The position numbers and the translations under genes were made by a program. This document shows positions 1,215 to 32,793 of a DNA stretch of 64,000 nucleotides, in pieces. Source of the stretch: Shigella phage ChubbyThor; sequence record OL615013; one strand, written 5' to 3'. The notes under the pieces were generated by a model. It had not been told where the DNA came from. It saw only the letters and a list, made by a program, of their open reading frames with translations, and made no database searches. The stretch's first letter is position 1. Each line of letters starts with the position of its first letter.

Positions 1215-1525
1215 GACATATCCTCATGGTTAGACAGACTGATCAAGAAGGACAGATTCCGGTCATGTATGAGGTCAATGGCCTTGCGGCTGCCCACGGC
1301 ATCACATGTCCAACAACTGTAATTCCCCGCGATCTTCAATGCTAATCTGACGACATGGCGTCTCATATTGTACTGAGCCAACTGATATCGGGCACGTGTC
1401 TTCTTGCGCCAGCACTGATTCTCAGCAATGTATTTGTAGAGAATCATCAACCGGACGGCTTTGTACAGGCGCTTTTCAGCGCCCTTGGATTTCTTTGAAA
1501 CACGGATCAGACTACCCATGATCAA
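1211..1525 (-). CDS. hypothetical basic protein (104 aa)
   Basis: ORF track; start overlaps end of gp46 ORF. Confidence 0.4.
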   Translation of the reverse strand: MIMGSLIRVSKKSKGAEKRLYKAVRLMILYKYIAENQCWRKKTRARYQLAQYNMRRHVVRLALKIAGNYSCWTCDAVGSRKAIDLIHDRNLSFLISLSNHEDMS

Positions 1526-3858
1526 TCCTTCTTGATAACTTCGGTCAGGCCGTTGCGCAGGCCATAGCGGATGTTGTGAGGGAAGTACTCTTGGAACTCC
1601 TGCTCACGCTGACTGATGACAAACAGGTTGTTCCCGCCGAACTTATGCTTCAGCATCTCAACCGATTCCTGCACCCCGCGCTCGCTCATGTTCTCAAGGA
1701 TTTCGTCCAGGACAAACAGGTTACATTGCACCGATGCCTTGAGGTTAGCCACGTCACGCAGAGCTAATGTCACAGCCAGGTTCAGGCGGCTGCGCTGGCC
1801 AGTAGACAGGGAGAAGATGCTCTGTCCCTTGCGGCCTGCTGCGCTCATGGTGATCTCAAAGGTATCGTCAACAACGATGTCCAGGAACATGTTGAGGGCT
1901 TCAAGATACTCGTTGATCTTGCTATTGAGGAATGGCAAGTACAGGGCGATGATACGCGCCTTGGTCTGGTCATCCTTCAGGAAGAATAACAGGTGCTGTA
2001 GATCCTGGAGTTCCTCATCTGCATCTTCACGTAGTTCATACAGAGCCTCCAGTTCACCTTCCAACGCAGCGATAGAGTTCTCCAGGTCGGCGGTAGGCGT
2101 CGGCTGTACAGCCAATTTACGCTCCAGATCGGCAATGGACGCCACGAGAGGAGCACGACGGGCTTTCAGCTCGGCGATCTTATCATCGACGGCTTTAATC
2201 CCGCTGACGGCATTCTCTCGCGTCTGTTGCAGCGACGCAGTGATATCTTCAAAACGAACGTTCAGCGCCTTGCGGATGTCAAGAATCTTCTGTTGGCATT
2301 CACGGTTCAGCGAATTACACTCAATCGTGGCCGCTTCATGGAAGCCCTGAATGTCACGGTGCAGCTGCTTGATGTTGTCAACGATTTCGTCGGCCTGCTT
2401 GCGCATTGCATCCAGTTCGGCATCCAACACAGCAATGTCAGCAACCAGCTTGTCGTCCTGAGCCTTGTGACCATCAATCAGGGTTGTGACATCGGCAGTG
2501 ACCTTATCCAGCTGATCCAACTTCGCCTGCAGTTCCTGTATCTGAGGGCTGTACTCGCTCTCAATGCGCGCTTTGGTATCGTCGGACACCAGCTGGGTGC
2601 ATGTTGGGCAAGTCCCCATATCGTGGAAGCGCTTGATGGCCGCTTGATGACCATCCATTTCTGTTTGGAAACGGATACGGAAGTTCTCACCCTGTTGGCG
2701 GCGCTGGATAGCAGCGTTCAGGGTGTCCAGGTTGGCGTTGCGTTCGGTGAGCAGGGTGTTCTTGCTTTCGGCCACTGTAAAGGCACGGTCACGCAAGACC
2801 TGAAGATCATGCTCCGCAGTAGACACTTCGATGCGCTCATAATCATCGGCCTTTTCCTGAGCGGCATCCTTCACCGCCTGGATCTTGGCTTCAAAGTCTT
2901 TCTTGACAGCCTCGATCTCCACCATGGATTCGTCATGAAGGCGGCTTTCCACCGTCTTCATTTCCTGAGTGGCTTCGAATTCCACGGCAGTGAGACGGGT
3001 TCGTTCTTCATTCTGGGCAGCGATGTCTGCATCCAGGGAATTCAGGGCTTCCTGTTGCTGTACAAGGATATCGGCCGACTGCTGTTGGATAAGGGCATTG
3101 GATTGCTCTATCTGCTGCAGCTGCGTCTTCTTGTTGGTGTGGTCAACAACCTTCAACGCACATTCATTCGCGATCGTGTCCAGCTTTTCGTTCGCTTTCT
3201 TGATGGATGCCTTGACATCTTCGTTCATCAGGCTGAAGAAGCCCAAGTCCCAGATAGTCTCCACCATGGCGCGGCGGTCGGCTGTGTACATCTCCGTGAA
3301 CGGAATGAACTTCTCTTTGCCCAGCACCAGAGAGTTCTCAAACATCTTCTGGTCCACGCCGATGAGGTTCACGATGTACTTGTTCATGTCGGCTTTGGCT
3401 GCTTCGTTATCGATCTGCAACCACTTGCCGTCCACCATCTGGTAGACTTCAACAAAGTCAGGTTTAATGCCACGGCGAACCTTCCATTCGCTACCACGGC
3501 AGGCAAACTCCACCTCACCCACACATTCCTTGCGGCTCTGTGAGTTTACCAGGCCTGCCTTCTTCTCCTTCTTGCTGTACGTGTCGTTGTACAGTACGAA
3601 GAATAGCAACCACACCAGCATCGTGGATTTACCCGCGCCGTTATCGTCAGACGTGACGAGGGTAGCCGGGTTGCGCTGGTAATCAATCTCCATGAACTGA
3701 TTACCGATGGAGCGGAAGTTCTTTGCGCGGCCTTTGCGGAAGGTCAGTTTGTGCGTAATGTTGTCACGCACTTCAAATGGGACTTCGACCTCAACCGGAG
3801 TGTCGGCTTCCTTCAAAAGATTGCCAAATTTGGCCAGGATATCTGTGCTCTGAGTCAT
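1522..3858 (-). CDS. 46: recombination endonuclease subunit, SbcC/Rad50-like ATPase (T4 gp46-like)
   Basis: Walker A GAGKSTML near N-terminus, long coiled-coil middle with CPTC zinc-hook-like motif, C-terminal ABC signature region; adjacent to Mre11-like gene as in T4 46-47. Confidence 0.85.
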   Translation of the reverse strand: MTQSTDILAKFGNLLKEADTPVEVEVPFEVRDNITHKLTFRKGRAKNFRSIGNQFMEIDYQRNPATLVTSDDNGAGKSTMLVWLLFFVLYNDTYSKKEKKAGLVNSQSRKECVGEVEFACRGSEWKVRRGIKPDFVEVYQMVDGKWLQIDNEAAKADMNKYIVNLIGVDQKMFENSLVLGKEKFIPFTEMYTADRRAMVETIWDLGFFSLMNEDVKASIKKANEKLDTIANECALKVVDHTNKKTQLQQIEQSNALIQQQSADILVQQQEALNSLDADIAAQNEERTRLTAVEFEATQEMKTVESRLHDESMVEIEAVKKDFEAKIQAVKDAAQEKADDYERIEVSTAEHDLQVLRDRAFTVAESKNTLLTERNANLDTLNAAIQRRQQGENFRIRFQTEMDGHQAAIKRFHDMGTCPTCTQLVSDDTKARIESEYSPQIQELQAKLDQLDKVTADVTTLIDGHKAQDDKLVADIAVLDAELDAMRKQADEIVDNIKQLHRDIQGFHEAATIECNSLNRECQQKILDIRKALNVRFEDITASLQQTRENAVSGIKAVDDKIAELKARRAPLVASIADLERKLAVQPTPTADLENSIAALEGELEALYELREDADEELQDLQHLLFFLKDDQTKARIIALYLPFLNSKINEYLEALNMFLDIVVDDTFEITMSAAGRKGQSIFSLSTGQRSRLNLAVTLALRDVANLKASVQCNLFVLDEILENMSERGVQESVEMLKHKFGGNNLFVISQREQEFQEYFPHNIRYGLRNGLTEVIKKD

Positions 3859-3859
3859 G

Positions 3860-4975
3860 TTATGCGTCCAGTTTGTTCAGGCGTTGTTGGGCAGCATTGT
3901 AGAAGTGCTCTGCCAGTTTACAGACGTTGTCAGGGCGCTGGATGTTGTTCCCGGCGCGGATATCCTTCTTCAGGACTTCCACTGCATCGGTTGCCACCAT
4001 CTCTTCGGTGACCTCAACCTTCTCAGCCGCCACGGTGATAGTCCGGTCGATGAAGTTGTAGTCAATGCACTTGCAGCGCTTCATGGCATCACAGAACTTT
4101 TCATAATGCTTAGCATTGTCGCGGTTCTGTACGATAACCTTAACGATCTGTCCTTCAATACCCAAGCCTGTGTTCAGCCATTCCGGGTCGATCCAGTTAC
4201 CCTCATCGTCTGAGGACAACTTGGTGTAGTCATACTCCACATAGCGGAACAACGTCTGGTGCTCGCTGTTGGGGATGAATACCTCGCCGCCGCGCATATC
4301 GTCTACATAGAAACCACGGTTGGTGCCGTCTTTGTAGTCTTCCCAGTTCAGGTGATACGGAGTCCCAATATATTGAATGTTACCTTCCATCGAACGGGTA
4401 TGGAAATGTCCCGTGTCGACCCTGGTAAACTTGGAAAGCAGAGCAACGTCGATCTGACCGTGATCACAAGTAGAAGACTGGTACATTTTGAACCCTGCCA
4501 GCTCCAGATGCGCAAAACAGTACTCGGCGTCTGTATCTTGTATCGCTTTAATAGACGCATCATAGTTCTCCTTGTTGATCCAAGGCAGCAGCAGAGTCTT
4601 GACACCCTCGATCATCACTTCGGTCGGTTCGCTGTAGTAGCAGTACACATCTGGGTCGAGTTCGTTCAGGTAGGATGGCCAGTTGATGCGGTTGGACTCT
4701 TCCAGGGTGATGTCGTGGTTGCCAACAATGCCATTCCACTTGATGTCAGCCGCTTTCAGCGCTGGAGTTAATTCATCCTTCAGCCAGTCTTTGTCGCGCC
4801 CGTACATGAATTTTCGGACGTCAAACGTGTCACCCAATTGCCAGACCTCATGGATGTCCGAGTCGACAAGCTCGGGGATGAAATAGTTGATGAGGTAGTT
4901 CTTGATGAAGTCGCGAACGTAACGGGAACCATTACGGCTCCCGATATGCAGATCGCCTATTTTAGCAATCGCCAT
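3860..4975 (-). CDS. 47: recombination endonuclease subunit, SbcD/Mre11-like nuclease (T4 gp47-like)
   Basis: Calcineurin-like phosphoesterase motifs GDLHIG, GDTFD, GNHD; directly downstream of gp46-like gene. Confidence 0.85.
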   Translation of the reverse strand: MAIAKIGDLHIGSRNGSRYVRDFIKNYLINYFIPELVDSDIHEVWQLGDTFDVRKFMYGRDKDWLKDELTPALKAADIKWNGIVGNHDITLEESNRINWPSYLNELDPDVYCYYSEPTEVMIEGVKTLLLPWINKENYDASIKAIQDTDAEYCFAHLELAGFKMYQSSTCDHGQIDVALLSKFTRVDTGHFHTRSMEGNIQYIGTPYHLNWEDYKDGTNRGFYVDDMRGGEVFIPNSEHQTLFRYVEYDYTKLSSDDEGNWIDPEWLNTGLGIEGQIVKVIVQNRDNAKHYEKFCDAMKRCKCIDYNFIDRTITVAAEKVEVTEEMVATDAVEVLKKDIRAGNNIQRPDNVCKLAEHFYNAAQQRLNKLDA

Positions 4976-5703
4976 TATTCTGTTTCTCCTTCGGTTTCGT
5001 CCAAATCGAATTGGGTTTTGCCAAAGTCCTGATCTGAATTGTCTTCGGCCTGCGCTGTTACCGTATTCTTAGCCTGCGCCATGTATTGAAGTATGCCTTT
5101 CGCAATCTTTTTATTCGATTCTGCGAGACGAGCCGCCTCCACCTTCTCTCGCTCCTTCTGCCTTTGAGCGTCCTTTTTGTTCTCAAAGTTACCGATACGT
5201 TCACGGAAGTCCATGCCAATCCCTGTCGCGTCAACAAAGATCTCTTGTTGGAAGTCGGGATCGTCTGCCAGGCCTGCGAACCCACCCGCCTCTTCAAATG
5301 AGCGCAATTTGATGTACGTGTGTTCTTCTTCGATGTTCAGTTTACGAGCAAATGAGCGATCCGCACACATGGTCACCCAAGAGAAGAAGTTGATCTTCCC
5401 TTTCTTTCCAATGTGGTCGACGTCAAAGGTGTGGAGGTAACGCAGGATGTTGACGATTGCTTCAGAGACCATGTCTTCACGGAAGGGATAGTCGCGATAG
5501 TTGTAGCGGGTGCTCATCTTGGTGATGATGCGCTGGACCTGTAGAGCAACATAGTTGGGGATCTTTGGAAGCCTGGTGCCTTCAGCCAGAGCCTTCTTAC
5601 GAGCAGGGATCCAATCACGAAGGATACTGATGACACGCTCGTTATCTTCGTCCGTGAAATATTTGACGACATTCTCGCCACGATCAACATAATTCATACC
5701 CAT
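4975..5703 (-). CDS. 55: late-transcription sigma factor (T4 gp55-like) with C-terminal extension
   Basis: Recalled similarity to T4 gp55 (ILRDWI, YNYRDYPFREDMVSEAIVNILRYLHTFD, FFSWVTMCADRSFARKLNIEEE); T4-like 47-55 synteny. Confidence 0.75.
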   Translation of the reverse strand: MGMNYVDRGENVVKYFTDEDNERVISILRDWIPARKKALAEGTRLPKIPNYVALQVQRIITKMSTRYNYRDYPFREDMVSEAIVNILRYLHTFDVDHIGKKGKINFFSWVTMCADRSFARKLNIEEEHTYIKLRSFEEAGGFAGLADDPDFQQEIFVDATGIGMDFRERIGNFENKKDAQRQKEREKVEAARLAESNKKIAKGILQYMAQAKNTVTAQAEDNSDQDFGKTQFDLDETEGETE

Positions 5704-5714
5704 TGTGGGAACCC

Positions 5715-6242
5715 TCAGATACCGATAAATTCATCAAAAGATCCAACAACCTTCTTCACTGAGATCTTGTCATTCTCAATCAGGAAGTTGCTGTCGTTTT
5801 TGGCTGCTGTGGCCCAGTCATCGGCAAGTTCGTTACCTTCGTGCCCCGCATGACCCTTAACCCATTTTAGTTCAACTTCACAAATTGAACAAACGAGATC
5901 ATAGATTCTGAACAGATCTTTGATGAGTTCAACGTTCTTGTCTGGGAAGCCCTGATACTCCCACTTCGCTCGCCATTCGGTGACGCTCTTGATGGTGTAT
6001 TGACTGTCAGACCAAATTGTTGCCTTTGGTATTCTGCGCTCACCCTTTCCTGAGAATGCCCACAGCAGCTTCAATGCGTTGGTCACACCCAACAACTCGG
6101 CGATGTTGTTGGTGGACGGGGGAGGTAGGTGACCGAAGAACACCTTCCATTGCATACCCGATATTGGCCTGATGACAAATGCCCATCCTGCGGCCTGGTT
6201 GGTCTTCGGGTTAGAACCCCCGTCAGAATAAATTTCTATCAT
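5715..6242 (-). CDS. ribonuclease HI (RnhA-type)
   Basis: SDGGS near N-terminus and GHAGHEGNELAD motif; start moved from track position to ATG at 6240-6242 (MIEIYSDGG...). Confidence 0.75.
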   Translation of the reverse strand: MIEIYSDGGSNPKTNQAAGWAFVIRPISGMQWKVFFGHLPPPSTNNIAELLGVTNALKLLWAFSGKGERRIPKATIWSDSQYTIKSVTEWRAKWEYQGFPDKNVELIKDLFRIYDLVCSICEVELKWVKGHAGHEGNELADDWATAAKNDSNFLIENDKISVKKVVGSFDEFIGI

Positions 6243-6244
6243 GA

Positions 6245-6252
6245 TATAAATA
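6245..6252 (+). promoter_or_regulatory. exact T4-type late-promoter octamer TATAAATA, about 36 nt upstream of the plus-strand gene at 6288
   Basis: tataaata read directly at 6245-6252 in the divergent intergenic region. Confidence 0.3.
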
Positions 6253-6287
6253 TCCCAAACTGGTTTTATAGAAAGAGGAATGAAACT

Positions 6288-7055
6288 ATGGCACCCCGCG
6301 CATATCGTTTCAGTCTCACCGCCCCGCAGATTGAGCAATTGCTCCTTTCTATCAATGATGCTATCAAGTCAGAAGATATCATCTATGATTATGCTGCAGG
6401 TGGGACTGTTGGGCAAGTCGCAGCAGCGTCTGCCGTCAAGAACATGTGGTTGAAGCTCAACGAGATGGTAACAGGCCAAGGCCTCAAAGATGCCATCAAC
6501 GCTGCAGAAGACAGCAACGTGTTCACCGACTATTATAAGTCTTTACTGGATCGCGAAGGCTGGAAATTTATTGGGTCTCCGGCAGATGAACTTGAGCGAG
6601 GCGACATCGACACCGCGAACTTCACGGGTGGTGAGGTCATTCTACTTCAGAAGAACGCTTCAGGCAACCCCGAATTCCAATACTGGAAGCGTACCCCGGT
6701 TGCTGGGGGTGATCCGACCTTCGCCTGGGCTTCGGTCTATGAAGGGAACTCCAACGACTCCAGCATCGAAATCCCGGTGATTGGCACCAGCGTCCTCAAA
6801 GACATTCCCAAGGCTCTCTTCCATATGGTGGAGTTCCGGGTTCATGTCTATGATGAAACGCTGGGGCACTGGCAAGATACAGATGGCAAGGTGGGGTATC
6901 GTGGCGAGGATCTGTTCTACAGCACGTATAACCATGTGCAGACCAAACCGCTCGCCACCATTGACTTCAGTCAAGACACAGATAGCATGACAGTCTCTGT
7001 GACTTCCCTGGAGCCGAATGTCAAATGCCATCTGTCGTTTATCGCTGGTTACTAA
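6288..7055 (+). CDS. hypothetical protein (255 aa), plus-strand gene
   Basis: ATG at 6288 with AGAGGA SD 8 nt upstream; divergent from RNase H gene; track ORF 6129..7055 trimmed to this ATG. Confidence 0.55.
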   Translation: MAPRAYRFSLTAPQIEQLLLSINDAIKSEDIIYDYAAGGTVGQVAAASAVKNMWLKLNEMVTGQGLKDAINAAEDSNVFTDYYKSLLDREGWKFIGSPADELERGDIDTANFTGGEVILLQKNASGNPEFQYWKRTPVAGGDPTFAWASVYEGNSNDSSIEIPVIGTSVLKDIPKALFHMVEFRVHVYDETLGHWQDTDGKVGYRGEDLFYSTYNHVQTKPLATIDFSQDTDSMTVSVTSLEPNVKCHLSFIAGY

Positions 7056-8770
7056 ACCTCAAACACGGCATCAGTAAACCAAGCGGGGAAGAACTCTGGG
7101 TTGCGCATCATCAGTGATTCAAAAGAAGAATCAAGGATGTATGTCGCAGCCCAGTCATTCACGCCCCTGACCGAACGCCCGCACATCTGAACGATACGCA
7201 GTACCGCCATCCTGAAGTACGCCGATGGGTCTACACTGTTGACGTGAGCCACCAGAGGATCACCAAGGTAATCGTATGGAACCTTGATCAAGATCTGAAA
7301 TCGGCTGTAATCGCCTTTGAAGTCATACCCCTCTTCCATAGCCGGACTGGCGATGACACAAGGCGTCTTCGTCCGGAACGCGTGTTCCATGATGTCCATC
7401 AGAGCCTTACGAGTACGAGGAACGTGAATCATATTCCGGTACTTGCTAAACTTCTGTAGAGCCAGGGCGCGGTCATAGCTGACGGTGTGGATGATACCAG
7501 ACTGACCGGGGTGGAATGCGATGATCTCGTCCACGTATTCAGCCAGCTTCTTCATCTCATAGTCACCCATGTTGGACGACATCTTCATGACGGGCATGTA
7601 GTTGACTTTGCGGTTCTCAATCGGGATAGGGTTGCCGATCTGAATCTTGTGGTACTCACCATCACGGATACCCAGTGACCGAGCGTACGAGTCAATCCCA
7701 CAAATGGTCGCCGACATGTGAACATGATAGTCACCCTTGCGGAACAGGCCGAACTGAGACACATCAGAGGCAATGACAGGCTTGAACTGGATCATGCCCT
7801 TGTCCTTCTCCTGCACGATGAAGGTGCTGGCGTTGGTCTGCCCCATGATACCACAGTAGTCACTGAGGTTGTGAAGGGTGTCAATGATGTCAGACAACTT
7901 CATCACCTGGGCTTCAGTCAGGCGCTCGTCCTCTACCAGTTCCTCAAGGGTTTCTAAGAGGGCTTCAACCTTGTCATGCAGGTCGTCAAAGATCGCATGC
8001 ATCTCACCTGTCAGTGAGTACAGCTTACCCAACTCGTAATTCTCTGTGCGTCTGACGATATCCGTGATGATCTCCACGATAGGCACCCCCTCGGGGATTG
8101 TCAGCAACCCCCTTACAGCATTTATGCTGTATTCCATGATCGTGTGCTCTAGGAGCGTAGAGGGCATTTTATGGCACTCGTCAAGGATCAGCATATCGGC
8201 GCGGTTTTCCGGCTTCATACAGATCGTCGTGCACATCTCCACCATCATGGCGGCGTTGGTGCAGCGCAGAGAAGAGATGTCCGTCCAAAGACGACGAGCC
8301 TGAACATATGGGCAACGATTTTTATTACAGTGGCCATCTCGGCATGCCATACGGCACTGGATAGCGTTGTAATACAGGTCAGGACTGATATGACAACGAT
8401 AGTTCTTCTTGCCCTTCAGGATGTCTATCGCCACGGCTTTCTCCGCCGCATACTGATCTTGTAACCCTTTGGTCGGCGTCGTGATAGACGTGCGGAACTG
8501 ACCATACGGATTGCGCTCAAGAACCAGATGGCGAAGCACGTTATGGATGGTAGTGCCAATGAGGGATTTGCCCACACCAGTCGGAGCCTCGATGATCACG
8601 TGTTTGAATTTCTTATTCACAAGGGCATCAACGGCTTCAACGATGCACTCCATCTGGCCGGGGTTGGCGGTGTCGTATGGGAAGGACTCAGTGGCAAGAG
8701 ACTTGATGCGGTCTATGCTAACTGGTCCGACGCCATCAAGCGCCTTGGTATATTGGTTGAATGCTGTCAC
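7052..8770 (-). CDS. DinG/XPD-like superfamily-2 DNA helicase with Fe-S cluster
   Basis: Walker A APTGVGKS, DECH box, four-cysteine cluster CRMACRDGHCNKNRCPY between them. Confidence 0.7.
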   Translation of the reverse strand: MTAFNQYTKALDGVGPVSIDRIKSLATESFPYDTANPGQMECIVEAVDALVNKKFKHVIIEAPTGVGKSLIGTTIHNVLRHLVLERNPYGQFRTSITTPTKGLQDQYAAEKAVAIDILKGKKNYRCHISPDLYYNAIQCRMACRDGHCNKNRCPYVQARRLWTDISSLRCTNAAMMVEMCTTICMKPENRADMLILDECHKMPSTLLEHTIMEYSINAVRGLLTIPEGVPIVEIITDIVRRTENYELGKLYSLTGEMHAIFDDLHDKVEALLETLEELVEDERLTEAQVMKLSDIIDTLHNLSDYCGIMGQTNASTFIVQEKDKGMIQFKPVIASDVSQFGLFRKGDYHVHMSATICGIDSYARSLGIRDGEYHKIQIGNPIPIENRKVNYMPVMKMSSNMGDYEMKKLAEYVDEIIAFHPGQSGIIHTVSYDRALALQKFSKYRNMIHVPRTRKALMDIMEHAFRTKTPCVIASPAMEEGYDFKGDYSRFQILIKVPYDYLGDPLVAHVNSVDPSAYFRMAVLRIVQMCGRSVRGVNDWAATYILDSSFESLMMRNPEFFPAWFTDAVFEV

Positions 8771-8824
8771 TTTCTTCCTCCTATGGGATTCGCCTTTAGT
8801 TTAACCGATTCCCAGGAACGAAAA

Positions 8825-8847
8825 AGCCGGAGTACAATGCTCCGGCT
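8825..8847 (-). terminator. intrinsic terminator hairpin downstream of HU-like gene (works on either strand)
   Basis: AGCCGGAG / CTCCGGCT 8-bp stem with 7-nt loop, flanked by A5 upstream and TTCTCTTTT downstream. Confidence 0.6.
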
Positions 8848-8899
8848 TTCTCTTTTGTCACGCCCCCGCGTTGCAGAGGCCGGACCGAACCAGGTTGAA

Positions 8900-9178
8900 T
8901 TACTTGCCGTTGGCAGCGTTCTTCAGACCTTCGCCCACTTTAAATTTCACAACGTTTTTCGCTTCGATCTGAATGGTCTGACCGTTCAGAGGGTTACGAC
9001 CTTCACGAGCTTCCTGGTGCTTCACTTCGAACGCGCCGAAGCCGACCAGCTGTACAGATGCGCCTGCAGCAACTGCAGTTTTAACGCCGTCGATAAAGGA
9101 TGCCACTACTTTCTCCGCTTCGCCTTTGGTGATGTTCTGGGTCGAAGCAATGTGGGCAACAAATTCAGTACGATTCAT
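8900..9178 (-). CDS. HU/IHF-family DNA-binding protein
   Basis: Full-length HU-like sequence MNRTEFVAHIA...GFGAFEV...GRNPLNGQTIQIEAKNVVKFKVG. Confidence 0.85.
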   Translation of the reverse strand: MNRTEFVAHIASTQNITKGEAEKVVASFIDGVKTAVAAGASVQLVGFGAFEVKHQEAREGRNPLNGQTIQIEAKNVVKFKVGEGLKNAANGK

Positions 9179-9268
9179 CTGGATTTCTCCGTTGGGTTAA
9201 TGTTTACTTTCATGTTCACTACAAGAGGACTACAGTTTAACTAACAAATTTTATTGAATAAAGCGGAA

Positions 9269-9553
9269 TTATTGGGTGTTTCCTTTGGAGATGAATGATT
9301 CCATGTCTTCCCGAGAAATAATCGTTTCCACACGATCTTCATCGATCAACATTTCGTTCAGAAGGTCATAGCCCAGGACTTTCACACCACGCACGCCCCA
9401 AGACTTTTCCCTCAGCTCTGACTCAATACTGAGAACTCTCTGAACCGTCAGGCCACCAGAAGAGAATGGGACCGGAAAGAAAGCAGAACACACTTGGGCG
9501 CACCCATTTACACTGTAACGAACCAGCAAGACATCACACCATACGCCAGCCAT
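9269..9553 (-). CDS. hypothetical protein (94 aa)
   Basis: ORF track; tightly packed with downstream gene. Confidence 0.4.
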   Translation of the reverse strand: MAGVWCDVLLVRYSVNGCAQVCSAFFPVPFSSGGLTVQRVLSIESELREKSWGVRGVKVLGYDLLNEMLIDEDRVETIISREDMESFISKGNTQ

Positions 9554-12338: not shown

Positions 12339-13169
12339 TCATTGGAATTCAACTCCATACCTTTCAAGCCATTTATCACAAGTTAAAGGATCCCAACCAT
12401 TATCTAACCTTCGAATAATCGGATTCACTTTAGCCCAGATCCCAGAAGAATTGGAACCGAATACTTCTTTAATGGCTTCTCCCTTGGTCTTACCTTTCAA
12501 TATATGGTAATGTATGTGGGCTGCCCAACACCACCAATTATCCCTATCCGGAGTCCATCTTGGCTTCTCCCAAGGCATTTGCTCTCTGGAGGTTCTGGTA
12601 AAAGCCTCAACACGTTTCCTTTCTTGGTCCGATGTCAATTTATTGGTTAGGCTCTTTCCATAACAGTGATGGTGCTCTCCTCTCTTGACACCTGCATTTC
12701 TCTTCGCAAAGAATTGTTTCAGTTCAGGGTCTTCCTTGCGCTTGTCTTCATAGAATTTCAGCAGTGAATCTGAAGTTGCATCTTTGGCTGCCTGAGACTT
12801 CTTTTTACCATACATCGGGTTGTTAGCCCCTCTGTTCTCTTCGGACAATCTCGCGGCGTATTTCTTACGCATTTTGGCGAAGAGATGTGAATTAACTCTG
12901 TGGCCATTCCTTCTCAGGATCATCAGCGCCTTTACCATACACGTATCCGGCAGCGCCAGAGCGAGACACACGTGAGCAATATAGTGGACGCGGTGTGGTA
13001 ATTTGATTAAATTGTTCTTATCTTTCTTGAATTGAGGAAATAGGGCGGCTGGAAGGATGTGGTGAAATTCTCCTTCCCCGTTGTAATCTGAATAGGCTGA
13101 AAGCAATTTCACATATTTGCCTACAAAGTGCGGTTTGCCACCTATTGTTAAAAGATATTCTCTTTTCAT
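12339..13169 (-). CDS. HNH-type homing endonuclease-like protein
   Basis: N-terminal EFHHILP...NNLIKLPHRVHYIAH (HNH pattern); NPMYGKK DNA-binding repeat like those in the GIY-YIG endonuclease at 32793. Confidence 0.6.
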   Translation of the reverse strand: MKREYLLTIGGKPHFVGKYVKLLSAYSDYNGEGEFHHILPAALFPQFKKDKNNLIKLPHRVHYIAHVCLALALPDTCMVKALMILRRNGHRVNSHLFAKMRKKYAARLSEENRGANNPMYGKKKSQAAKDATSDSLLKFYEDKRKEDPELKQFFAKRNAGVKRGEHHHCYGKSLTNKLTSDQERKRVEAFTRTSREQMPWEKPRWTPDRDNWWCWAAHIHYHILKGKTKGEAIKEVFGSNSSGIWAKVNPIIRRLDNGWDPLTCDKWLERYGVEFQ

Positions 13170-18538: not shown

Positions 18539-20203
18539 TCAGATTTGTGATGCCAGTTCTACTACGAGAGGAGCGGCACGGACACGCGCATCTTCCAGAG
18601 TTTGAGTGTTGAAGAACTTGCCGTCACGATACACCAGCTGGTGCTGGTTGTCGGCGTCTTGCACCTGATCAAAGGTGATACCGTCAACCAACACTAGTTT
18701 ACCCTGAGAGTCTTTAATGACTTTAAGGAAACCACGCGCAGACTTTTTAGTCCCGCCTTTGTCGGTCTTCGGCTCTTTGAAGATCTCACGGAATTCGCCG
18801 TTCACCTTACCAGCCGTTGCTTTCACCGCCGTGCCAGTACTGTCACGGGTGTTCATCTGGTAGGTGTAGGAACCGATACCGAACACCACGTTGATGGAAG
18901 CGAAGTTCCGGCCAGCCAGACGACTAAAGATCTGGTCTTCACGTGCCAGGGTGATGGAGTCACCGTAGATCAGACCGATGTGTTCGTCCAACAGGAAGTG
19001 GCCAGTTTCAGTTTGAGTACCGCCAAAGATCTCCCACAGGCGCTGGATAGAGCCGACTGCTTCAGAACGGCTGATGATATTACGGTCGTCTGCCATCAGA
19101 GAGTTGATCGTGCCTTCGCCTGTGATCAGGTGATAGGTGTTCGTCTCTTCGATGTGAATGACTTCAGTGCTGCTAGACACGCCGCTGATGTTCAGCGTGG
19201 CGCGGTCTTTGAACCCCTCAATGCGGTAGCCGCCGACGATATGAACTGGGTCGCCCGAGTCAGGGCGGATCACGACTTTACCGTTACGCGCCATGATAAT
19301 GTCTTTCAGGCGAGGGAGATAGTCGTCGATGACCTGCCAGTAATCCCACGCATCAGACACGATGCTGACGATGCCATCAGGATACACGTCCTGCACCAGG
19401 CGGCGGAAGGTTTCGAATTCGCCATCCTTCGTACCCATACACATCACGGCGTGTTCGGTAGCCGCAACAGAACCAGCAACGACATAGTCTTCGTCGATGT
19501 CTGCGCCATAATACTCTTCTACGAAGTCCAGGGCAGGGTTGGTATCGGTGCCTTTGAAGAACACCAGATGACCGGAACCGGAAGACGCCGCGTCATGCCA
19601 TCCACTCATGCCACGGAAGGAGAAGTCGTGGCCTTGGTAGTCGATGAACCAATGGTCCGGCGACACGCCTGTAGCGAGGGCAGCTTTCACCATCAGTGCC
19701 TTGTAATGCAGGGCGATGGTGGCGTTCGTCATCGGCTTCCAGATCTCAGAGCTGAACACAGTCTCCAGATAGTTGGTCAGCCAGTAGAACTCCGGCAGGG
19801 TGTTGAACATCACATACACCGGAACGCCATATGGGCACATGGTGCCTTCAGGCAGAGCACGGACTTCGATAGGCAGGTAGCCGAGGTCATGCAGGGCTTC
19901 AATATGCTCTGTGCCGACGCGGCCTGGACCCAGGACTTTGTTCATGCGACGGGCATACTTCTTCAACACCTTGGCCTTTGGGCGCTGGAAGAATGCTTCG
20001 TCAAACAGTTCGTGGAACCAGGTCATGAAGCCCTGGATGCCCCAGACCACCACGCCGTTCTTCGGCAGGTGAGAGTTGAACAGTTTGTTGGAGCGCGGAG
20101 TTCCGTTGGAGAACACCAGCTCGCTGCCTTCAGGGAACTGATAGATGTGCCCTGATTTGTAGAAGTCGATTGCATGGATTGGGTCTAAGTGGCGCATGCT
20201 CAT
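18539..20203 (-). CDS. nicotinamide phosphoribosyltransferase family protein (NadV/Namat-like)
   Basis: NAMPT-like motifs DFSFRGMSG, VSDAWD, RPDSGDP, GLIYGDSIT; 4-nt overlap with upstream PRPP-synthetase-like gene. Confidence 0.8.
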   Translation of the reverse strand: MSMRHLDPIHAIDFYKSGHIYQFPEGSELVFSNGTPRSNKLFNSHLPKNGVVVWGIQGFMTWFHELFDEAFFQRPKAKVLKKYARRMNKVLGPGRVGTEHIEALHDLGYLPIEVRALPEGTMCPYGVPVYVMFNTLPEFYWLTNYLETVFSSEIWKPMTNATIALHYKALMVKAALATGVSPDHWFIDYQGHDFSFRGMSGWHDAASSGSGHLVFFKGTDTNPALDFVEEYYGADIDEDYVVAGSVAATEHAVMCMGTKDGEFETFRRLVQDVYPDGIVSIVSDAWDYWQVIDDYLPRLKDIIMARNGKVVIRPDSGDPVHIVGGYRIEGFKDRATLNISGVSSSTEVIHIEETNTYHLITGEGTINSLMADDRNIISRSEAVGSIQRLWEIFGGTQTETGHFLLDEHIGLIYGDSITLAREDQIFSRLAGRNFASINVVFGIGSYTYQMNTRDSTGTAVKATAGKVNGEFREIFKEPKTDKGGTKKSARGFLKVIKDSQGKLVLVDGITFDQVQDADNQHQLVYRDGKFFNTQTLEDARVRAAPLVVELASQI

Positions 20204-21054
20204 TTTACACGTCCTGTATTTTCAGTTTTGAAAGGAAGACCGTCGGCGGTGATATTCTCCCACCAGACAGTGTCGGCATACACAGCATCGTAAATCCCGT
20301 CGAAAACAGAGAGACCTTTGCTGAAGATGCCATGGGTAACGAAGAGCGTCATGTGTTTGGGCTTGTGCTTCTGAAGCTCTTTGCCTAACTCAACGAACGT
20401 GCGCCCACCGTCGCAGATATCATCAACCACAACCAGATAGCGGTCTTTGATCAGTTCAGGGTTTGTAATGCTCACCCCAATGATCTCACCAGTCTTGGTG
20501 TCACGGTTCTTGTGTCCGTAGACAACAGGAACACCATCCAGAGACAGGCTGAGGGCTTCGGTCTTCTTCGCCGCGCCACCGTCAGGGGCTACCAACACAG
20601 CATTGTTCCCACGGATGAACCAGCCCAGATACTGACGCACGATGTAATCTTGCGGGACAACATGGACGTTGTTGATCAGAGAAGTCACAACATGGCTGTG
20701 AGGGTCTTTGATCGCCACGCGGTCAAAGTTCATGCTATTGATGAACTCAGCCGCCCACTTCACAGACAGAGGCTCGCCGAAGTCGCAATGGCGGTCCTGG
20801 CGAGCATACGGGAAGTAAGGGATATACGCATGGAATGTCGTCAGACGATCCACGTTGCCCAGGCCACGCACGGCGTTTACCAGAAGCGCCAGCTCAATGA
20901 AGTCGGCTGATGATTTGATGTGAGCATCAATCACCACGTTCTGGACGTGACCGACAGGGATGCCAGCCTTTTGGATCTTGATATGTTCCTCACCACCTGG
21001 GAAGGTGAAGTGCTTGTAGAACACATCTTGGTCGTTCAATTTCAAACGAAACAT
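20200..21054 (-). CDS. ribose-phosphate pyrophosphokinase family protein (Prs/Adps-like)
   Basis: PRPP-binding motif VVVDDICDGGRTF and VLVAPDGGAAKK; size typical for Prs family. Confidence 0.8.
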   Translation of the reverse strand: MFRLKLNDQDVFYKHFTFPGGEEHIKIQKAGIPVGHVQNVVIDAHIKSSADFIELALLVNAVRGLGNVDRLTTFHAYIPYFPYARQDRHCDFGEPLSVKWAAEFINSMNFDRVAIKDPHSHVVTSLINNVHVVPQDYIVRQYLGWFIRGNNAVLVAPDGGAAKKTEALSLSLDGVPVVYGHKNRDTKTGEIIGVSITNPELIKDRYLVVVDDICDGGRTFVELGKELQKHKPKHMTLFVTHGIFSKGLSVFDGIYDAVYADTVWWENITADGLPFKTENTGRVK

Positions 21055-22817: not shown

Positions 22818-24836
22818 TTAGAACACAACTTTCACAGTGCGGTTGAACGAGCCGCTCACCTTCACGAACACGTGGTTGCGTTGGGTGGTAGAGAAGCCCA
22901 GACCGGACAGCTGCTCAGTGCTTGGCTGTACTTTAATCTTACCACCTAACATTTCAAAAACCTTGCGGTGTTTATCAAGTTCCGGCTTCAGATATTCGTT
23001 GTAGAAGCCACGGGTGCCGACAGGGTTAGCACAACCTTCCAGGATGAAGAACACGTGCTTGTTGCCCGTCTGCTCGCCGTCCCAATGGTTTGGTGAGTTC
23101 AGAACCAGCTGTACCTTCTGGAAGACGGAGGTCTTGATGCCCCAGATTTCCTGAGAGCGAGCGTCGTCTTTCAGGGTAGAACTGATGTCGACCACCTGAC
23201 CAGCGCGTACCTGAACCACAACAGCCAACGTGCGGTCTTTGTTTCCCAGACCAGGATGCGAGAAGCGCTTGGTCTGGCCTTTGTATTCAACTTCGATTTC
23301 GAAGCCCACATCGCAGGTTTCGCGCTTGCTGTAGTTGGTGACATAGAACTCATAGTTCCCGTCACGCAGCTTGCATTCATCGCTGAAGAAGATGTTCTCC
23401 ACCGGACGGCGGTTCGGGTCAATACCGTCCATACCGTTCATGTCGATGTCCAGGGTTGCACCAGTTGCCGAACGACGGTTGTTGAAATACACGTGGTTGT
23501 GAAGAGGATCGTTCAGGCTCAGATCCAGGTCGTCGTTGTTATGCCAAGCCAGCGACACACGGAGGAAGCTGTCGACGTTGCCGCCTGCGGTCTTCACGCG
23601 CTCTTTGATGGAGTCGGCCACTTCACCGTTGTATGACCAGCTGAAGCCGTTGTTCCACTTGAACAGGTTAGGAGCACCTGCCGTAGCCGGAGCGATCAGG
23701 GACATCAGGTTGCCAGTGTGAGAGTTTTCAACCAGCACTTCCAGGGAATGCGCCTTTGGCAACACGTTGGTCAGGAAGTCGTCGATGGTGATCTCTTCAA
23801 CCTTGTCCAGGGACTTGGTCGGAGTCTTCACTTCAGACGCCAGCTGAGCAAACGGGTCCATCTTCTTCTGCGCTGCCAGGTCGGCGAACAGAACGTTGTT
23901 GATGGTCAGATCGTCATACACGGCATAACGGCGACCCAGTGAATCGGTCAGACCCAGCGCTTCGACTTCTTTCTGCGCGTTTTCAATCATGGACTTCGTG
24001 ACCAGCGCGGTTGGGCGCTTGTAGTTCGTCGGAGCGACTTTGGCTTCAAAGGACTTCACGGCGGTTTCCAGATCCCGACCTTCATTGAGGTCTACCAACA
24101 GAGAGCCAATCACGGTATTGCGGATGCCGTGAGGGGTGTGTCCGTTTGCACGGTAGCCAGTACGCCAAGCCCACAGAGCGCGTTTCTCTTCTGCAGTTTG
24201 TTCGTACAGGGTCTTGCTCGTCACGAACGCCTGTACTGCTGCTTTGTGCTCTTCACCACGATACAGAGAATTCTGATCAATCAGTTCCAGAACGATTTCG
24301 GCCGATTCCAGAGACAGTTCACGCAGGCCGCGCTCAAACACTTCAATCGCCTGGCGGATTTCACCCTTCTTAGAAGCGATGACATCAGCCCGCAGAACAT
24401 AGCTGGGCAGCAGGTCGGTGTGGAAGTGGTTGTAGGTGCGGACATTACCGTCTTTCATTTCGTGATTCGACTCAACACCGACTTTCTTGGTATCGTTGAA
24501 GTACACGTCGACGATTGCGTGTTGCTTGACATACGCAGACAGCGCCGCGGCGACAACGTCGTATTCGTTACCCAGCTGAATGTTATCCCAGATAGAGATC
24601 ACGTTCAGGTCGGCGTCGATGGTCACCACACCGCCGATGTTACGGATGAATTGTTTACAGCAGGTGCAGTCGTGCTCGGTGCGCTCACGGTAGAGCGGGT
24701 TGGTGCCAGCAGGGAAAGAAGACAGATACAGATCCCACAGAGCATCTTTATCGATGTTGGTCATGAACAGACCAGTTGCTGACATGGCCAGCACATTATT
24801 GTTTACAGCTACTGCGAAGGGCTTAAATTCTGACAT
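22818..24836 (-). CDS. large hypothetical protein (672 aa)
   Basis: Long ORF with ATG start; no polymerase or other motif recognised. Confidence 0.6.
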   Translation of the reverse strand: MSEFKPFAVAVNNNVLAMSATGLFMTNIDKDALWDLYLSSFPAGTNPLYRERTEHDCTCCKQFIRNIGGVVTIDADLNVISIWDNIQLGNEYDVVAAALSAYVKQHAIVDVYFNDTKKVGVESNHEMKDGNVRTYNHFHTDLLPSYVLRADVIASKKGEIRQAIEVFERGLRELSLESAEIVLELIDQNSLYRGEEHKAAVQAFVTSKTLYEQTAEEKRALWAWRTGYRANGHTPHGIRNTVIGSLLVDLNEGRDLETAVKSFEAKVAPTNYKRPTALVTKSMIENAQKEVEALGLTDSLGRRYAVYDDLTINNVLFADLAAQKKMDPFAQLASEVKTPTKSLDKVEEITIDDFLTNVLPKAHSLEVLVENSHTGNLMSLIAPATAGAPNLFKWNNGFSWSYNGEVADSIKERVKTAGGNVDSFLRVSLAWHNNDDLDLSLNDPLHNHVYFNNRRSATGATLDIDMNGMDGIDPNRRPVENIFFSDECKLRDGNYEFYVTNYSKRETCDVGFEIEVEYKGQTKRFSHPGLGNKDRTLAVVVQVRAGQVVDISSTLKDDARSQEIWGIKTSVFQKVQLVLNSPNHWDGEQTGNKHVFFILEGCANPVGTRGFYNEYLKPELDKHRKVFEMLGGKIKVQPSTEQLSGLGFSTTQRNHVFVKVSGSFNRTVKVVF

Positions 24837-24951: not shown

Positions 24952-26175
24952 TTATTCAGGTTTCTTCAAACGGTCCAGCAAATTGACGGAACCACGTTTG
25001 AGCACGACTTCATCACAGCGCTTTTTGTATTCCCCACCGCCGTCATAGCTGACCTTGCCCCGAGGTTTTTCACCGCGCCCAACCGCCTCAACACAGCGAG
25101 TGTACTTGCTCAGTTCACAGAACATGTTCTCCAGCTGCATGACGTTCATGCATTGGTCTACAGGCTCTTCGGCCGACCAGAATTGCTCGCGAACATACCC
25201 ATATTGGGAGTATACCGCGTCCTGATTATCCCGTAGCCAGAATATGCATTCTTCGTGAGTCATGCCGTCCTTGTTCAGGAACAGCAGATCAATACCTGCG
25301 CGACAGCCCGGTCCGGCGATCGTGAAGTGATTCTCGCTGAACGGATAACCAGGCATGTACGTGAAATCAACCCAGATCTGATAGGCCAGGAATGGACCAA
25401 GCCCTTCAATGTCGTCGTACATGCGCTGGTATACTTCCAGAGGAGTATCAAGACGCAGCAGGTCATGGAAGTAATTTGGGTGCTTGTTGACGAATGCCTT
25501 CAGGGAACGGATAACACGCATCGGCATGTATGGTTCCCATCCCTCGATGGTATATTCACCAGGATTCTCTTCGACCAGCTTCTTGGCGACCTTGTAGTCC
25601 ATCTCGTCCACAATACCCTGGCCAACGCGATACACTTTCACCATCATCCCACCGAAGCGCTGCTCCTTGTGGTTGACAACCAGCTCAGGGAAAGCCAGGC
25701 ATTGCTTCAGGCCGCCTGTGTTGAAGGCATTGGTGAACACCTTGCCGCCGTCGGCCTCGAACTTCTGAAGTCGTTCGCGGGTTGCGTCAAGGTTGATCTT
25801 GGCGAAGTCTTTGATCGTCATCGCGCCGCCGATAGCCTGGATCGGATCCCAGAGGTTGAACATGCGGAACAGAACGCAGTTGAACATCTTGTCTGCCATG
25901 CCCAGAGCATCGTTCTTGACGATGTTATTGATCAGGTTGAGAGACTGCCTGTCGTGCTCTCTCCGGACGTTACAGAACTTGACCTGCCGTAGTATAGGAT
26001 TATTGGTCCAAGGGGCAGGAAGACGCTGGACGTCCTTCTTGACGTGGATCTTATAGCGCTCGCTCATCCATTCGTAAGACAGGCGGGTATGGGTCGGACT
26101 GAGAACCGGTTTGGCCGACTTTATCTTTTCTTCACGGACACCGCAGTACGGGACGTCCAGGGCTTTATCTTTCAT
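24952..26175 (-). CDS. hypothetical protein (407 aa)
   Basis: Long ORF with ATG start; no motif recognised. Confidence 0.6.
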   Translation of the reverse strand: MKDKALDVPYCGVREEKIKSAKPVLSPTHTRLSYEWMSERYKIHVKKDVQRLPAPWTNNPILRQVKFCNVRREHDRQSLNLINNIVKNDALGMADKMFNCVLFRMFNLWDPIQAIGGAMTIKDFAKINLDATRERLQKFEADGGKVFTNAFNTGGLKQCLAFPELVVNHKEQRFGGMMVKVYRVGQGIVDEMDYKVAKKLVEENPGEYTIEGWEPYMPMRVIRSLKAFVNKHPNYFHDLLRLDTPLEVYQRMYDDIEGLGPFLAYQIWVDFTYMPGYPFSENHFTIAGPGCRAGIDLLFLNKDGMTHEECIFWLRDNQDAVYSQYGYVREQFWSAEEPVDQCMNVMQLENMFCELSKYTRCVEAVGRGEKPRGKVSYDGGGEYKKRCDEVVLKRGSVNLLDRLKKPE

Positions 26176-30141: not shown

Positions 30142-30519
30142 ATGAAACAGTTCGTAGGATTATATGCGGTCGGATGCAGTAAGCCAGACGCCATCCTCAC
30201 CGCAGGGCAATTTGTCACAGGCACCCCAGTTTATCTGGCGCAGCTGGCGTCAGACAAGAACTTACCATCGGAGCCGCGATTTGTCCCTCTGGGTTTGATG
30301 ACAGGCCTGAAAGTTGGTCTGTATGTCGGTGTGGTGACGTTTGAAAACGGCGTCGAAGCGAAAGTTCTGCCATTCAAATTGGGCAGCGAACAAATGCTGA
30401 AGGATACGATCAGTGAACACCTGAACACACAATGTCTGGCTTCTCTGGACAAATTGTTCGGCGCAGTATCTGATGAAGGCGAGGCCACCCCCGCCTATGT
30501 GAATCAAGATCAGTCGTGA
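30142..30519 (+). CDS. hypothetical protein (125 aa), plus-strand gene
   Basis: ATG with GAGAG SD; protein-like sequence; converges on uvsW with 10-nt overlap. Confidence 0.5.
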   Translation: MKQFVGLYAVGCSKPDAILTAGQFVTGTPVYLAQLASDKNLPSEPRFVPLGLMTGLKVGLYVGVVTFENGVEAKVLPFKLGSEQMLKDTISEHLNTQCLASLDKLFGAVSDEGEATPAYVNQDQS

Positions 30520-32018: not shown

Positions 32019-32043
32019 ACAAAATCTCCCAAGGAATATGGGG

Positions 32044-32050
32044 TATTTAG
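32044..32050 (-). promoter_or_regulatory. CTAAATA late-promoter-like motif upstream of uvsW
   Basis: minus-sense CGCTAAATACCCCATATT about 26 nt upstream of ATG 32018. Confidence 0.4.
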
Positions 32051-32793
32051 CGATCCGGCCAGACTCCGTTCTGTTCTTTATCCATGCGATGGTACAGACG
32101 AACACGCTCAAACATCTTTGTCAGGATGTCATCGCGGTTGAACTCTATGATGGTTGGCGTCAACGATGACTCGTTGGCAATCACATTGATGAGGCGGGTG
32201 ATCTTGACACCGAACATCTGCTGGAACATAACAGAGTACAAGCACAGCTGGATACTGTAGTCCTCGATCATTCCCCGCGTCTTCATGGTGTTCGATGTCT
32301 TGAAGTCGATGATAGCAGGCTTACCCTCATAAACCCCGATAAGGTCCACTCGACCTGCGAGACCAAGCACCTCGCTATATAACGGGATCTCCTGAGCATA
32401 GATCTTTGTCATCTTGTTCAGATAGGGGAACAGCTGCTTGAACATGAACATGTATTCGCCAGCCGCTTCCAACACTTCTTTCATTGGGCGGTTCTTCAAA
32501 TACAGTTCACATGCAAGGTGCAGCTTCTCCCCTCGGTCAGCGCAACGCATGGTCTCAAGGTCGGCGGCCTCTGCACCCAGCTTCTCCCTCCAAGCCTCAA
32601 GCCATTCATGATCACCAGTACGCCCCAGCATCGTCGTGACAGACGTCAGCTTGACACCAGTTGGTGACACATAATGACGACCGTTCTCCGTCGTCACACA
32701 CTCCAGTTCCTTATGAGGAAGTTCGTACTGCTGGAATGTGTAATGACGATTTTCGAAGTCGTTCAGCTTGCGCAGGGCTTGGAGAGATGCCAT
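32047..32793 (-). CDS. PD-(D/E)xK nuclease (RecB/Cas4-like exonuclease family)
   Basis: GRVDLIGV...IIDFKTS (D...D/E.K) and QLCLYS (QxxxY) motifs. Confidence 0.6.
   Translation of the reverse strand: MASLQALRKLNDFENRHYTFQQYELPHKELECVTTENGRHYVSPTGVKLTSVTTMLGRTGDHEWLEAWREKLGAEAADLETMRCADRGEKLHLACELYLKNRPMKEVLEAAGEYMFMFKQLFPYLNKMTKIYAQEIPLYSEVLGLAGRVDLIGVYEGKPAIIDFKTSNTMKTRGMIEDYSIQLCLYSVMFQQMFGVKITRLINVIANESSLTPTIIEFNRDDILTKMFERVRLYHRMDKEQNGVWPDR

Follow-up and report, generated by a model that had tools for sequence, protein, structure and literature searches.

In the window analysed here, which is the whole stretch of 64,000 nucleotides from Shigella phage ChubbyThor (sequence record OL615013), two adjacent genes on the minus strand encode a helicase and a small DNA-binding protein. 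It is practically certain that the helicase belongs to the XPD/DinG (Rad3, COG1199-type) family of superfamily 2 (SF2) and that the small protein belongs to the DNABII/HU family. We favour, as a fairly probable account, that these are two independently transcribed and vertically inherited core genes of the Ackermannviridae, with the helicase and HU roles set out below; this grading covers the whole explanation, including polarity, substrates, cofactor and biological role, which we infer. The pair is not unusual for its lineage, and what we re-identified are known, annotated core genes. An earlier note on this DNA had described a DinG/XPD-type helicase with a four-cysteine cluster and a full-length HU-like protein, and both open reading frames (ORFs) are present:

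7052-8770, minus strand: XPD/DinG-family SF2 helicase, 572 amino acids (Pfam, NCBIfam, PHROG, profile, AlphaFold2/Foldseek)
8900-9178, minus strand: HU-type DNABII protein, 92 amino acids (PF00216, phrog_379, PDB)

The helicase ORF starts with GTG eight bases past an AGGAGG sequence, and the HU gene starts with ATG after GGAG. Since the helicase ORF matched PHROG 2488 at 2.5e-260 and the small protein matched PF00216 (Bac_DNA_binding) at 5.9e-30, chance is no concern for either ORF. The following elements were located in the helicase:

Residues 65-69: motif I, GVGKS
Residues 98-107: motif Ia, TPTKGLQDQY
Residues ~119-167: cysteine-rich insert of about 50 amino acids, between strands 116-118 and 168-172 of the AlphaFold2 model
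Residues 197-200: motif II, DECH
Residues ~205-340: Arch insert, helical/beta, between motifs II and III
Residues 353-356: motif III, SATI
Residues 528-536: motif VI, QMCGRSVRG

An alignment and profile were made from 33 homologues that are 35-83% identical to the query. Residues G65, G67 and K68, the DECH of 197-200, the SAT of 353-355 and Q528, G531, R532 and R535 were invariant in all 33. Because Walker A, DECH and motif VI are invariant, the helicase is probably enzymatically active.

The family assignment was obtained with several independent tools. Pfam Helicase_C_2 (PF13307), the C-terminal motor domain of XPD/DinG, matched the helicase at 4.8e-12 (46.7 bits against a cut-off of 25.3), and the Pfam ResIII and DEAD models matched over the Walker A region. 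All five NCBIfam matches were DinG, YoaA, DinG-related or Rad3 models. In a single-sequence search of PDB, E. coli DinG ranked first (7.6e-06), and with the 33-homologue profile it was again first (1.7e-17), followed by DinG of Finegoldia (F. magna); further profile matches were XPD of Thermoplasma (T. acidophilum; 3e-14), yeast and human XPD, CHL1 and FANCJ. The AlphaFold2 model built from the homologue alignment had a pLDDT of 88.6 and a pTM of 0.87. When this model was compared with PDB by Foldseek, ranks 1-40 were all DinG, XPD or CasDinG, with TM values up to 0.68, and the best match was 6fws (E 9e-26, TM 0.66); RecQ and UvrB appeared from rank 44 on. The profile searches that the earlier note had called for were thus run for both proteins, and neither another helicase family nor a non-HU fold came up.

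The four cysteines of the insert, C126, C139, C148 and C153, were likewise invariant in 33 of 33 homologues, at identities down to 35%, which bears out the cluster noticed earlier. They are spaced C-x12-C-x8-C-x4-C. A 2025 review (PMC11981726) places the CCCC Fe-S domain of E. coli DinG in motor domain 1, between strands beta3 and beta4, and the insert of the phage helicase occupies the same position. In the profile alignment C148 and C153 fall on C199 and C205 of DinG, within a common motif C-x4/5-CP(Y/F)xxAR. The cluster ligands of DinG are C120, C194, C199 and C205. From conservation and position, the insert is a probable 4Fe-4S site.

Residues 1-90 of the small protein cover all 90 positions of the PF00216 profile, and phrog_379 ('DNA binding protein') matched at 3.5e-36. 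A PDB search returned 36 HU, IHF or TF1 (DNABII) sequences at E <= 1e-3, among them HU of B. anthracis (4.8e-19) and B. stearothermophilus (1.1e-18), E. coli HU-alpha (5.7e-15), HU-beta (2e-14) and IHF-alpha (2.9e-12), and SPO1 TF1 (2e-10); the corresponding bit scores were 71.5 for HU, 50 for IHF-alpha and 44 for TF1. The description of a full-length HU-like protein was therefore upheld. The dimer-core motif GFG stands at positions 46-48, with G46 and G48 invariant or nearly so. R58, G60, N62 and P63 (the GRNP motif with the intercalating Pro63) were invariant in both HU alignments, and R61 was invariant among HUs, being replaced only in TF1 (F61) and in the cellular homologue P0170 (V). At position 55 all aligned cellular HUs and TF1 have an Arg that contacts DNA; Agtrevirus, Kuttervirus, Klebsiella phage Madison and Nezavisimistyvirus carry Gln instead, and Miltonvirus carries Thr. 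Position 64 also differs, with Leu instead of Gln in Agtrevirus, Kuttervirus and Klebsiella phage Madison, three of the five genera. The altered positions 55 and 64 may be linked to the binding of partly cationic, hypermodified DNA. The window holds one DNABII gene, which favours a homodimer.

Both genes have regulatory sequences of their own:

8823-8849, minus strand: intrinsic terminator hairpin and T-run between HU and helicase, conserved in five genera
8771-8822, minus strand: helicase leader with the AGGAGG ribosome-binding site and a -10-like TAAACT at 8798-8803
9179-9268, minus strand: HU upstream block, conserved in the alignment of five genera

The terminator hairpin has the sequence GAAAGCCGGAG-CATTGTA-CTCCGGCTTTTT, followed by the T-run on the coding strand. 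Its stem shows compensatory changes across five Ackermannviridae genera (GCCGGAG/CTCCGGC, GCCGAGG/CCTCGGC, GCCGGGG/CCCCGGC, CCCCGC/GCGGGG and CCCCGG/CCGGGG), the T-run is kept throughout the alignment, and the terminator is annotated in Klebsiella phage Madison and LIMEstone1. A -10-like hexamer was found 25-30 nt before the helicase start in all five genera, reading TATAAC, TATACT, TAGAAT or TACAAT in the other genera, so that the helicase may possibly have a sigma-70-type promoter just past the terminator. The HU upstream block (TTTAnTCAATA...GTAAgCTGTA...G.AGT) can be read as a weak -35 (TTTATT), 17 nt and a TAnnnT -10 (TAAACT/TAAGCT). Between genera whose HU proteins share just 48-52% identity the block is still conserved, much more strongly than the coding sequences, and it is probably the HU promoter or a regulatory site, with the predicted -10 near 9234-9239. 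No T4-type late TATAAATA motif was present upstream of HU or the helicase when both regions were inspected. These arrangements suggest that HU is probably a monocistronic, strongly expressed early or middle gene and that HU and helicase would be neighbours rather than an operon. We also considered an 8-mer, GTTAAACT, that precedes each of the two genes; these are its sole occurrences in the window, but it is not significant alone and, judged from the cross-genus alignment, is likely just the -10-like element.

The window is Agtrevirus-like Ackermannviridae DNA, about 95% identical to Shigella phages Ag3, Gloob and MK-13. A megablast search with positions 6800-9400 matched 247 phage records, with Gloob, MK-13 and Ag3 at the top (95-96% identity) and Salmonella, Yersinia, Escherichia and Dickeya phages in the next tier (90-94%); all were Ackermannviridae (subfamily Aglimvirinae, genus Agtrevirus and its neighbours). 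The earlier note had spoken of a T4-type replication region: T4-type core genes are indeed present, but the phage is ViI-like and of a family distinct from T4, and the T4 gene set is therefore the wrong baseline for comparison. In five Ackermannviridae genera the helicase and HU genes lie side by side in an unchanged order, separated by 125-138 bp. Related Vibrio phages retain the synteny of the helicase with RNase H, gp55, gp47 and gp46, and no HU gene adjoins it there. By tblastn the helicase was found in 460 phage records and HU-family genes in 516, and more than 200 phage genomes already annotate the pair. A core-gene table of Vi01-like phages (PMC10892097) lists in order two recombination endonuclease subunits, a late sigma factor, a ribonuclease, a 'putative ATP-dependent helicase' and a 'putative DNA binding protein'. 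The original annotation of Ag3 likened the helicase to that of halovirus HF2 and the small protein to HU of Bacillus phage 0305phi8-36. GenBank labels for the helicase include 'DNA helicase', 'ATP-dependent helicase', 'Rad3-related DNA helicase' (haloviruses) and 'dinG: ATP-dependent DNA helicase' (Klebsiella phage PWKp5); those for HU include 'DNA-binding protein HU-beta', 'HU_IHF DNA binding domain protein', 'transcription factor 1', TF1 and 'DNA binding protein'.

Recent capture from the host was considered for both genes and rejected. Between the helicase and E. coli DinG identity is only 15-16%, and almost every relative of the phage helicase comes from a phage or a metagenomic virus. HU is shared unchanged with Ag3 (100% identity); a protein database search by shared 5-residue words, in which 55 candidates were scored and closer cellular HUs could be missed, returned a phage clade at 73-98% identity and then cellular HUs (Bacteroidota and others) at no more than 52%, and identity to E. 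coli HU (HupA and HupB) is about 40%.

The gp46/47/55 block that had been reported nearby was found downstream of the pair on the same strand, together with an RNase H gene; a plus-strand gene intervenes:

6129-7055, plus strand: convergent gene between helicase and RNase H (phrog_3833), 'structural protein' in several records
5715-6338, minus strand: RNase HI-type ribonuclease (PF00075, 4.6e-25)
4975-5703, minus strand: gp55 late sigma factor (phrog_234, 3.6e-52)
3860-4975, minus strand: gp47/SbcD-like nuclease subunit (phrog_100, 2e-106)
1522-3858, minus strand: gp46
1522-5703, minus strand: the gp46 - gp47 - gp55 block as a whole, a Rad50/Mre11-like recombination nuclease and late sigma factor

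Ag3 and Vibrio phage K469, the latter with a helicase of 47% identity, keep the order helicase - RNase H - gp55 - gp47 - gp46. The coordinates given for RNase HI are those of the longest ORF, and its true start is probably internal; the same probably holds for the plus-strand gene, with an internal Met at about residue 54 of its longest ORF as the real start. This plus-strand gene breaks an otherwise minus-strand replication/recombination block, and its stop codon and that of the helicase overlap by four bases (7052-7055). Directly upstream of HU lies a 94-amino-acid ORF (9269-9553, minus strand) of DUF7425 (PF24200, 7.5e-45). What neighbours HU at this position varies by genus: CBA120 has a lipoprotein there, and Madison and phiEa2809 have superinfection exclusion proteins. 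An Rfam scan of the whole window gave zero matches.

What the helicase would do in the favoured explanation follows from its family. DinG has 5'-3' polarity, acts on forks, D-loops and R-loops, and displaces RNA polymerase (PMC11981726). By analogy, the phage helicase would move 5'->3' on single-stranded DNA, unwind forks, D-loops and RNA:DNA hybrids, serve a T4-like recombination-dependent replication and clear R-loops or proteins ahead of forks. Its partners would be the neighbouring RNase HI, gp46/47, UvsX/Y and UvsW, the last located by collinearity with the annotated UvsW-like gene gp142 of Ag3:

~30510-32111: UvsW

The annotation of Ag3 lists gp41, gp59, primase, UvsX, UvsY, UvsW, gp32, gp43-45, gp46/47 and a RuvC-like resolvase. 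Dda is absent from that annotation, and five large unannotated ORFs gave no SF1 helicase match in Pfam, a partial check that together with the annotation is the whole basis of this absence and tempers the explanation to that extent. Because no Dda is annotated in Ag3, the DinG-type enzyme is the sole candidate for a non-replicative 5'->3' helicase, and it would occupy the accessory 5'->3' niche held by Dda in T4.

The HU protein, in the same explanation, would be a homodimer whose beta-arms and Pro63 serve to bend and compact DNA without sequence specificity. Its gene, with a promoter and terminator of its own, would probably be expressed at a high level, and the protein would serve the phage as its own architectural factor in replication, recombination, transcription or condensation. 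It would act on a genome with partly hypermodified thymidines, functionally like SPO1 TF1 on DNA containing hydroxymethyluracil (hmU). TF1 is an HU-family protein that prefers hmU-DNA. The window encodes a protein with the helical domain of a 5-hmdU DNA kinase (HMUDK):

24952-26175, minus strand: 5-hmdU DNA kinase helical-domain protein (PF18723 HMUDK_hel, 4e-82)

Ag3 carries HMUDK_HMUD1, an amino-acid:DNA transferase (ADDT), a PLP enzyme and a thymidylate-synthase-like (TS-like) gene. As judged from these genes, they and HMUDK make up the complete pathway that gives 5-NeOmdU in ViI and CBA120, and the phage hypermodifies thymidine. In those two phages 5-NeOmdU replaces about 40% of T (PMC11721090). 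With the pathway present, TF1 is the obvious functional analogue for the phage HU. The analogy is put forward as a hypothesis and not as a classification, because Phe61 and the C-terminal tail of TF1 are missing in the phage protein.

A number of observations weigh against the explanation taken as a whole. The family-specific N-terminal Pfam model DEAD_2 (PF06733) gave no match to the helicase at E <= 0.01; one homologue with 38% identity (P0064) has DEAD_2 in precomputed Pfam, and the miss points to a divergent, shortened insert and not to another fold. The helicase also scored far under the NCBIfam equivalog cut-offs (DinG 64 vs 598 bits, YoaA 57 vs 680, rad3 24 vs 247), so that no function can be transferred from an orthologue; on this sequence comparison it is a superfamily member and not an orthologue of E. 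coli DinG, YoaA or XPD. Just two of its four cysteines align directly to known DinG ligands, the insert itself has the lowest confidence in the model (pLDDT 67-73), and CCCC motifs can bind Zn rather than [4Fe-4S] (PMC11981726). For the small protein, the NCBIfam scores are close (IHF-alpha 73, IHF-beta 69 and HU-beta 68 bits) and all under the cut-off, which leaves some room for an IHF-like, site-specific mode; the safest name is HU-type DNABII protein. It has Arg61 in place of the Phe61 of TF1, and it ends at residue 92 without the 7-9 residue C-terminal extension; it thus lacks these sequence features of TF1-type proteins. HU genes occur in many phages with unmodified DNA, and a link to hypermodification is not needed. 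Our literature search on the function of either protein in Ackermannviridae found no experimental study, and a 2024 review of the Ackermannviridae mentions neither the helicase nor HU.

The helicase could instead be mainly a remover of R-loops and transcription conflicts that is paired with RNase HI, as E. coli DinG is with RNase H, and not a recombination helicase or Dda-like. We regard this as possible but doubtful. RNase HI lies two genes downstream and is a syntenic neighbour in both the Ackermannviridae and the related Vibrio phages, the actions of DinG on R-loops and RNA polymerase cited above fit such a role, and CasDinG unwinds RNA/DNA hybrids (PMC10450177). Helicase and RNase H are not co-transcribed, however, because the convergent structural gene stands between them. 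In PhiW-14, Acinetobacter phage SH-Ab 15599 and three metagenomic relatives the synteny with RNase H and gp46/47 is lost, which counts against this pairing and also against the favoured explanation. The two overlap, and R-loop removal does not exclude the broader role. That the helicase is a working part of thymidine hypermodification, perhaps one that gives 5-HMUDK or the amino-acid:DNA transferase access to opened DNA, appears very improbable. The PhiW-14 homologue is two genes from an HMUDK gene, a metagenomic relative has the helicase within 6 kb of HMUD2, ADDT and HMUDK, SH-Ab 15599, which carries a helicase homologue, has diaminopropane-modified thymine (PMC13458397), and helicase and pathway are both present in all Ackermannviridae. 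Yet HMUDK occurs in ~60-kb siphophages (M6/YuA/PaMx11-type and Bordetella phages) whose names are absent among the helicase matches listed, while the helicase occurs in haloarchaeal, Rhizobium and Bacillus G phages whose names are absent among the HMUDK matches listed; this comparison was made by organism counts and 60-row samples per search and not by a record-by-record intersection. In the window the two genes are 16 kb apart, and hypermodification in vitro without a helicase has been reported for the ViI and M6 enzymes. We rejected a functional link on the mismatch of the distributions, the overlap being explained by shared descent of large T4-core myophages.

For the HU protein, an action on the host, in which it displaces or competes with host HU/IHF and reorganises or shuts down the nucleoid, is in our view unlikely; a takeover of nucleoid organisation was one of the roles suggested in the earlier note. 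A lone gene with a conserved, non-late promoter-like element and no upstream TATAAATA fits early or middle expression, and at ~40% identity to E. coli HU non-functional heterodimers or competition would be possible. Against it, these phages have nucleases and T4-like shut-off functions, and R58, R61 and P63 are the contacts of an ordinary DNA-bending HU. We give similarly little credence to an IHF/TF1-like, site-preferring factor for phage transcription or site-specific packaging. In NCBIfam the IHF-alpha and IHF-beta models score as high as HU or higher, several GenBank records say TF1 or 'transcription factor', and the genome has hmU-derived bases as in SPO1; but the PDB search ranks HU over IHF-alpha and TF1, the TF1 features described above are missing, and annotation pipelines probably took the TF1 labels over from the closest SwissProt entry. 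Two further ideas were raised together, namely that the Ackermannviridae HU clade is adapted to 5-NeOmdU DNA as a Gram-negative counterpart of TF1 and that the compact Fe-S DinG-type helicase is the lineage's replacement for Dda. In this combined, specific form they seem improbable. The loss of Arg55 and the private promoter and terminator may fit an HU adapted to modified DNA; if that were true, HU would selectively tag phage DNA, or arrange it, for use in replication, late transcription or packaging.

Other genes in the window were also examined. The HMUDK ORF is a 'hypothetical protein' in most GenBank relatives, and some mislabel it as 'terminase small subunit' or 'aGPT-Pplase1'; its neighbour, a 672-amino-acid ORF at 22818-24836 (phrog_1735), had no Pfam match. 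At 12339-13169 (minus strand) a 276-amino-acid, NUMOD3-containing homing endonuclease (phrog_655, 1.7e-43) lies between orthologues of Ag3 gp119 and gp120. The corresponding site in Ag3 has only ~80 bp, and the gene looks like a mobile insertion found in this phage in particular. At 18539-21054 (minus strand) a ribose-phosphate pyrophosphokinase (phrog_619, 7e-91) comes after NAMPT (PF04095, 6.7e-32), and Ag3 lacks the pyrophosphokinase at the corresponding place; the 2024 review notes that this NAD+-salvage pair varies between Agtrevirus phages and that it may counteract defences which deplete NAD. Outside the window, Ag3 gp008 (L003 6634-7146) is a second 'histone family DNA-binding' core gene of 170 amino acids (phrog_4164, 1.7e-83). 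It showed faint similarity to the DNABII beta-arm (IHF/HU, E 0.09-0.6) and no Pfam match, and is possibly a second, strongly diverged member of the DNABII family.

The pair has little weight as a discovery: its genes are already annotated in a family with many sequenced phages, and HU proteins from phages as well as Rad3/DinG-like helicases from viruses are well-known classes. Its annotation can be improved. Where records say only 'DNA helicase', a more exact name is XPD/DinG-family helicase with a conserved four-Cys insert (probable 4Fe-4S), and 'TF1' or 'HU-beta' would better read HU-family (DNABII) protein, because neither is its orthologue. Biocontrol and phage therapy make wide use of Ackermannviridae, and their helicase, if it is an oxygen- and iron-sensitive Fe-S enzyme, and their HU, if it acts on hypermodified DNA, would be reasonable first biochemical targets. 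A practical point concerns PADLOC model PDLC01439 ('typeIV_DinG, CAS-IV-A associated'), which matched the helicase over its full length (residues 23-552, 3.6e-50) and all 33 family members (3.6e-50 to 2.5e-59). It is probably a generic DinG/Rad3 (COG1199-type) profile, and defence-finder pipelines that use it could mis-call phage helicases as parts of CRISPR type IV systems. We rejected a link of the helicase to CRISPR type IV: canonical Csf4 models matched it at ~1e-6 only, a search of plasmids, the usual home of type IV systems, returned a single relative, on a haloarchaeal plasmid and not a close one, and the helicase has no CRISPR context.

Among known helicases, E. coli DinG (6FWR/6FWS) comes first both by structure (TM 0.66-0.68) and by profile. 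Both proteins have the same domain order, with motor 1 carrying the beta3-beta4 Cys insert, the Arch insert and motor 2, and both have the C-x4/5-CP(Y/F)xxAR motif spanning two cluster ligands. They differ in length (572 amino acids in the phage protein, 716 in DinG), in the size of the Cys insert (~50 against ~85 amino acids) and in motif II (DECH against DEGH), and the phage-borne gene, unlike dinG, is not SOS-regulated. Archaeal XPD (T. acidophilum, 4A15/2VSF/9P55) shares the four-domain architecture (profile to 3e-14, Foldseek E 1e-17 to 6e-22), whereas the Cys spacing of the phage protein is different and it has no TFIIH or nucleotide excision repair context. The 'Rad3-related DNA helicase' of haloarchaeal tailed viruses (HF2, HCTV) is a detectable homologue at 27-33% identity, and the phage enzyme therefore falls into a widespread viral clade of the XPD/DinG family. 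CasDinG (Csf4) of type IV-A CRISPR-Cas also has the SF2 XPD/DinG fold (Foldseek E ~1e-19), but its Fe-S domain is vestigial and has lost the cysteines (PMC10450177, PMC11981726), all four of which the phage helicase has. With T4 Dda the proposed likeness is one of niche, that of a non-replicative 5'->3' helicase beside gp41, gp59, UvsW, UvsX/Y and gp46/47; Dda is SF1B and the phage helicase SF2, a different superfamily and fold.

The HU protein aligns over its full length with bacterial HU (B. anthracis 3RHI and B. stearothermophilus 1HUE, at 1e-18 to 1e-19, and E. coli HupA/HupB), and GFG, R58, R61 and Pro63 are kept in its 92 amino acids. It differs from these proteins in falling under both the HU-alpha and the HU-beta equivalog cut-offs and in the replacement of Arg55 by Gln (Thr in Miltonvirus). 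SPO1 TF1 (1WTU/1EXE) is a more distant homologue, about 38% identical, and both it and the phage HU are phage-encoded DNABII proteins of phages in which thymine is replaced, or derived, via hmU.

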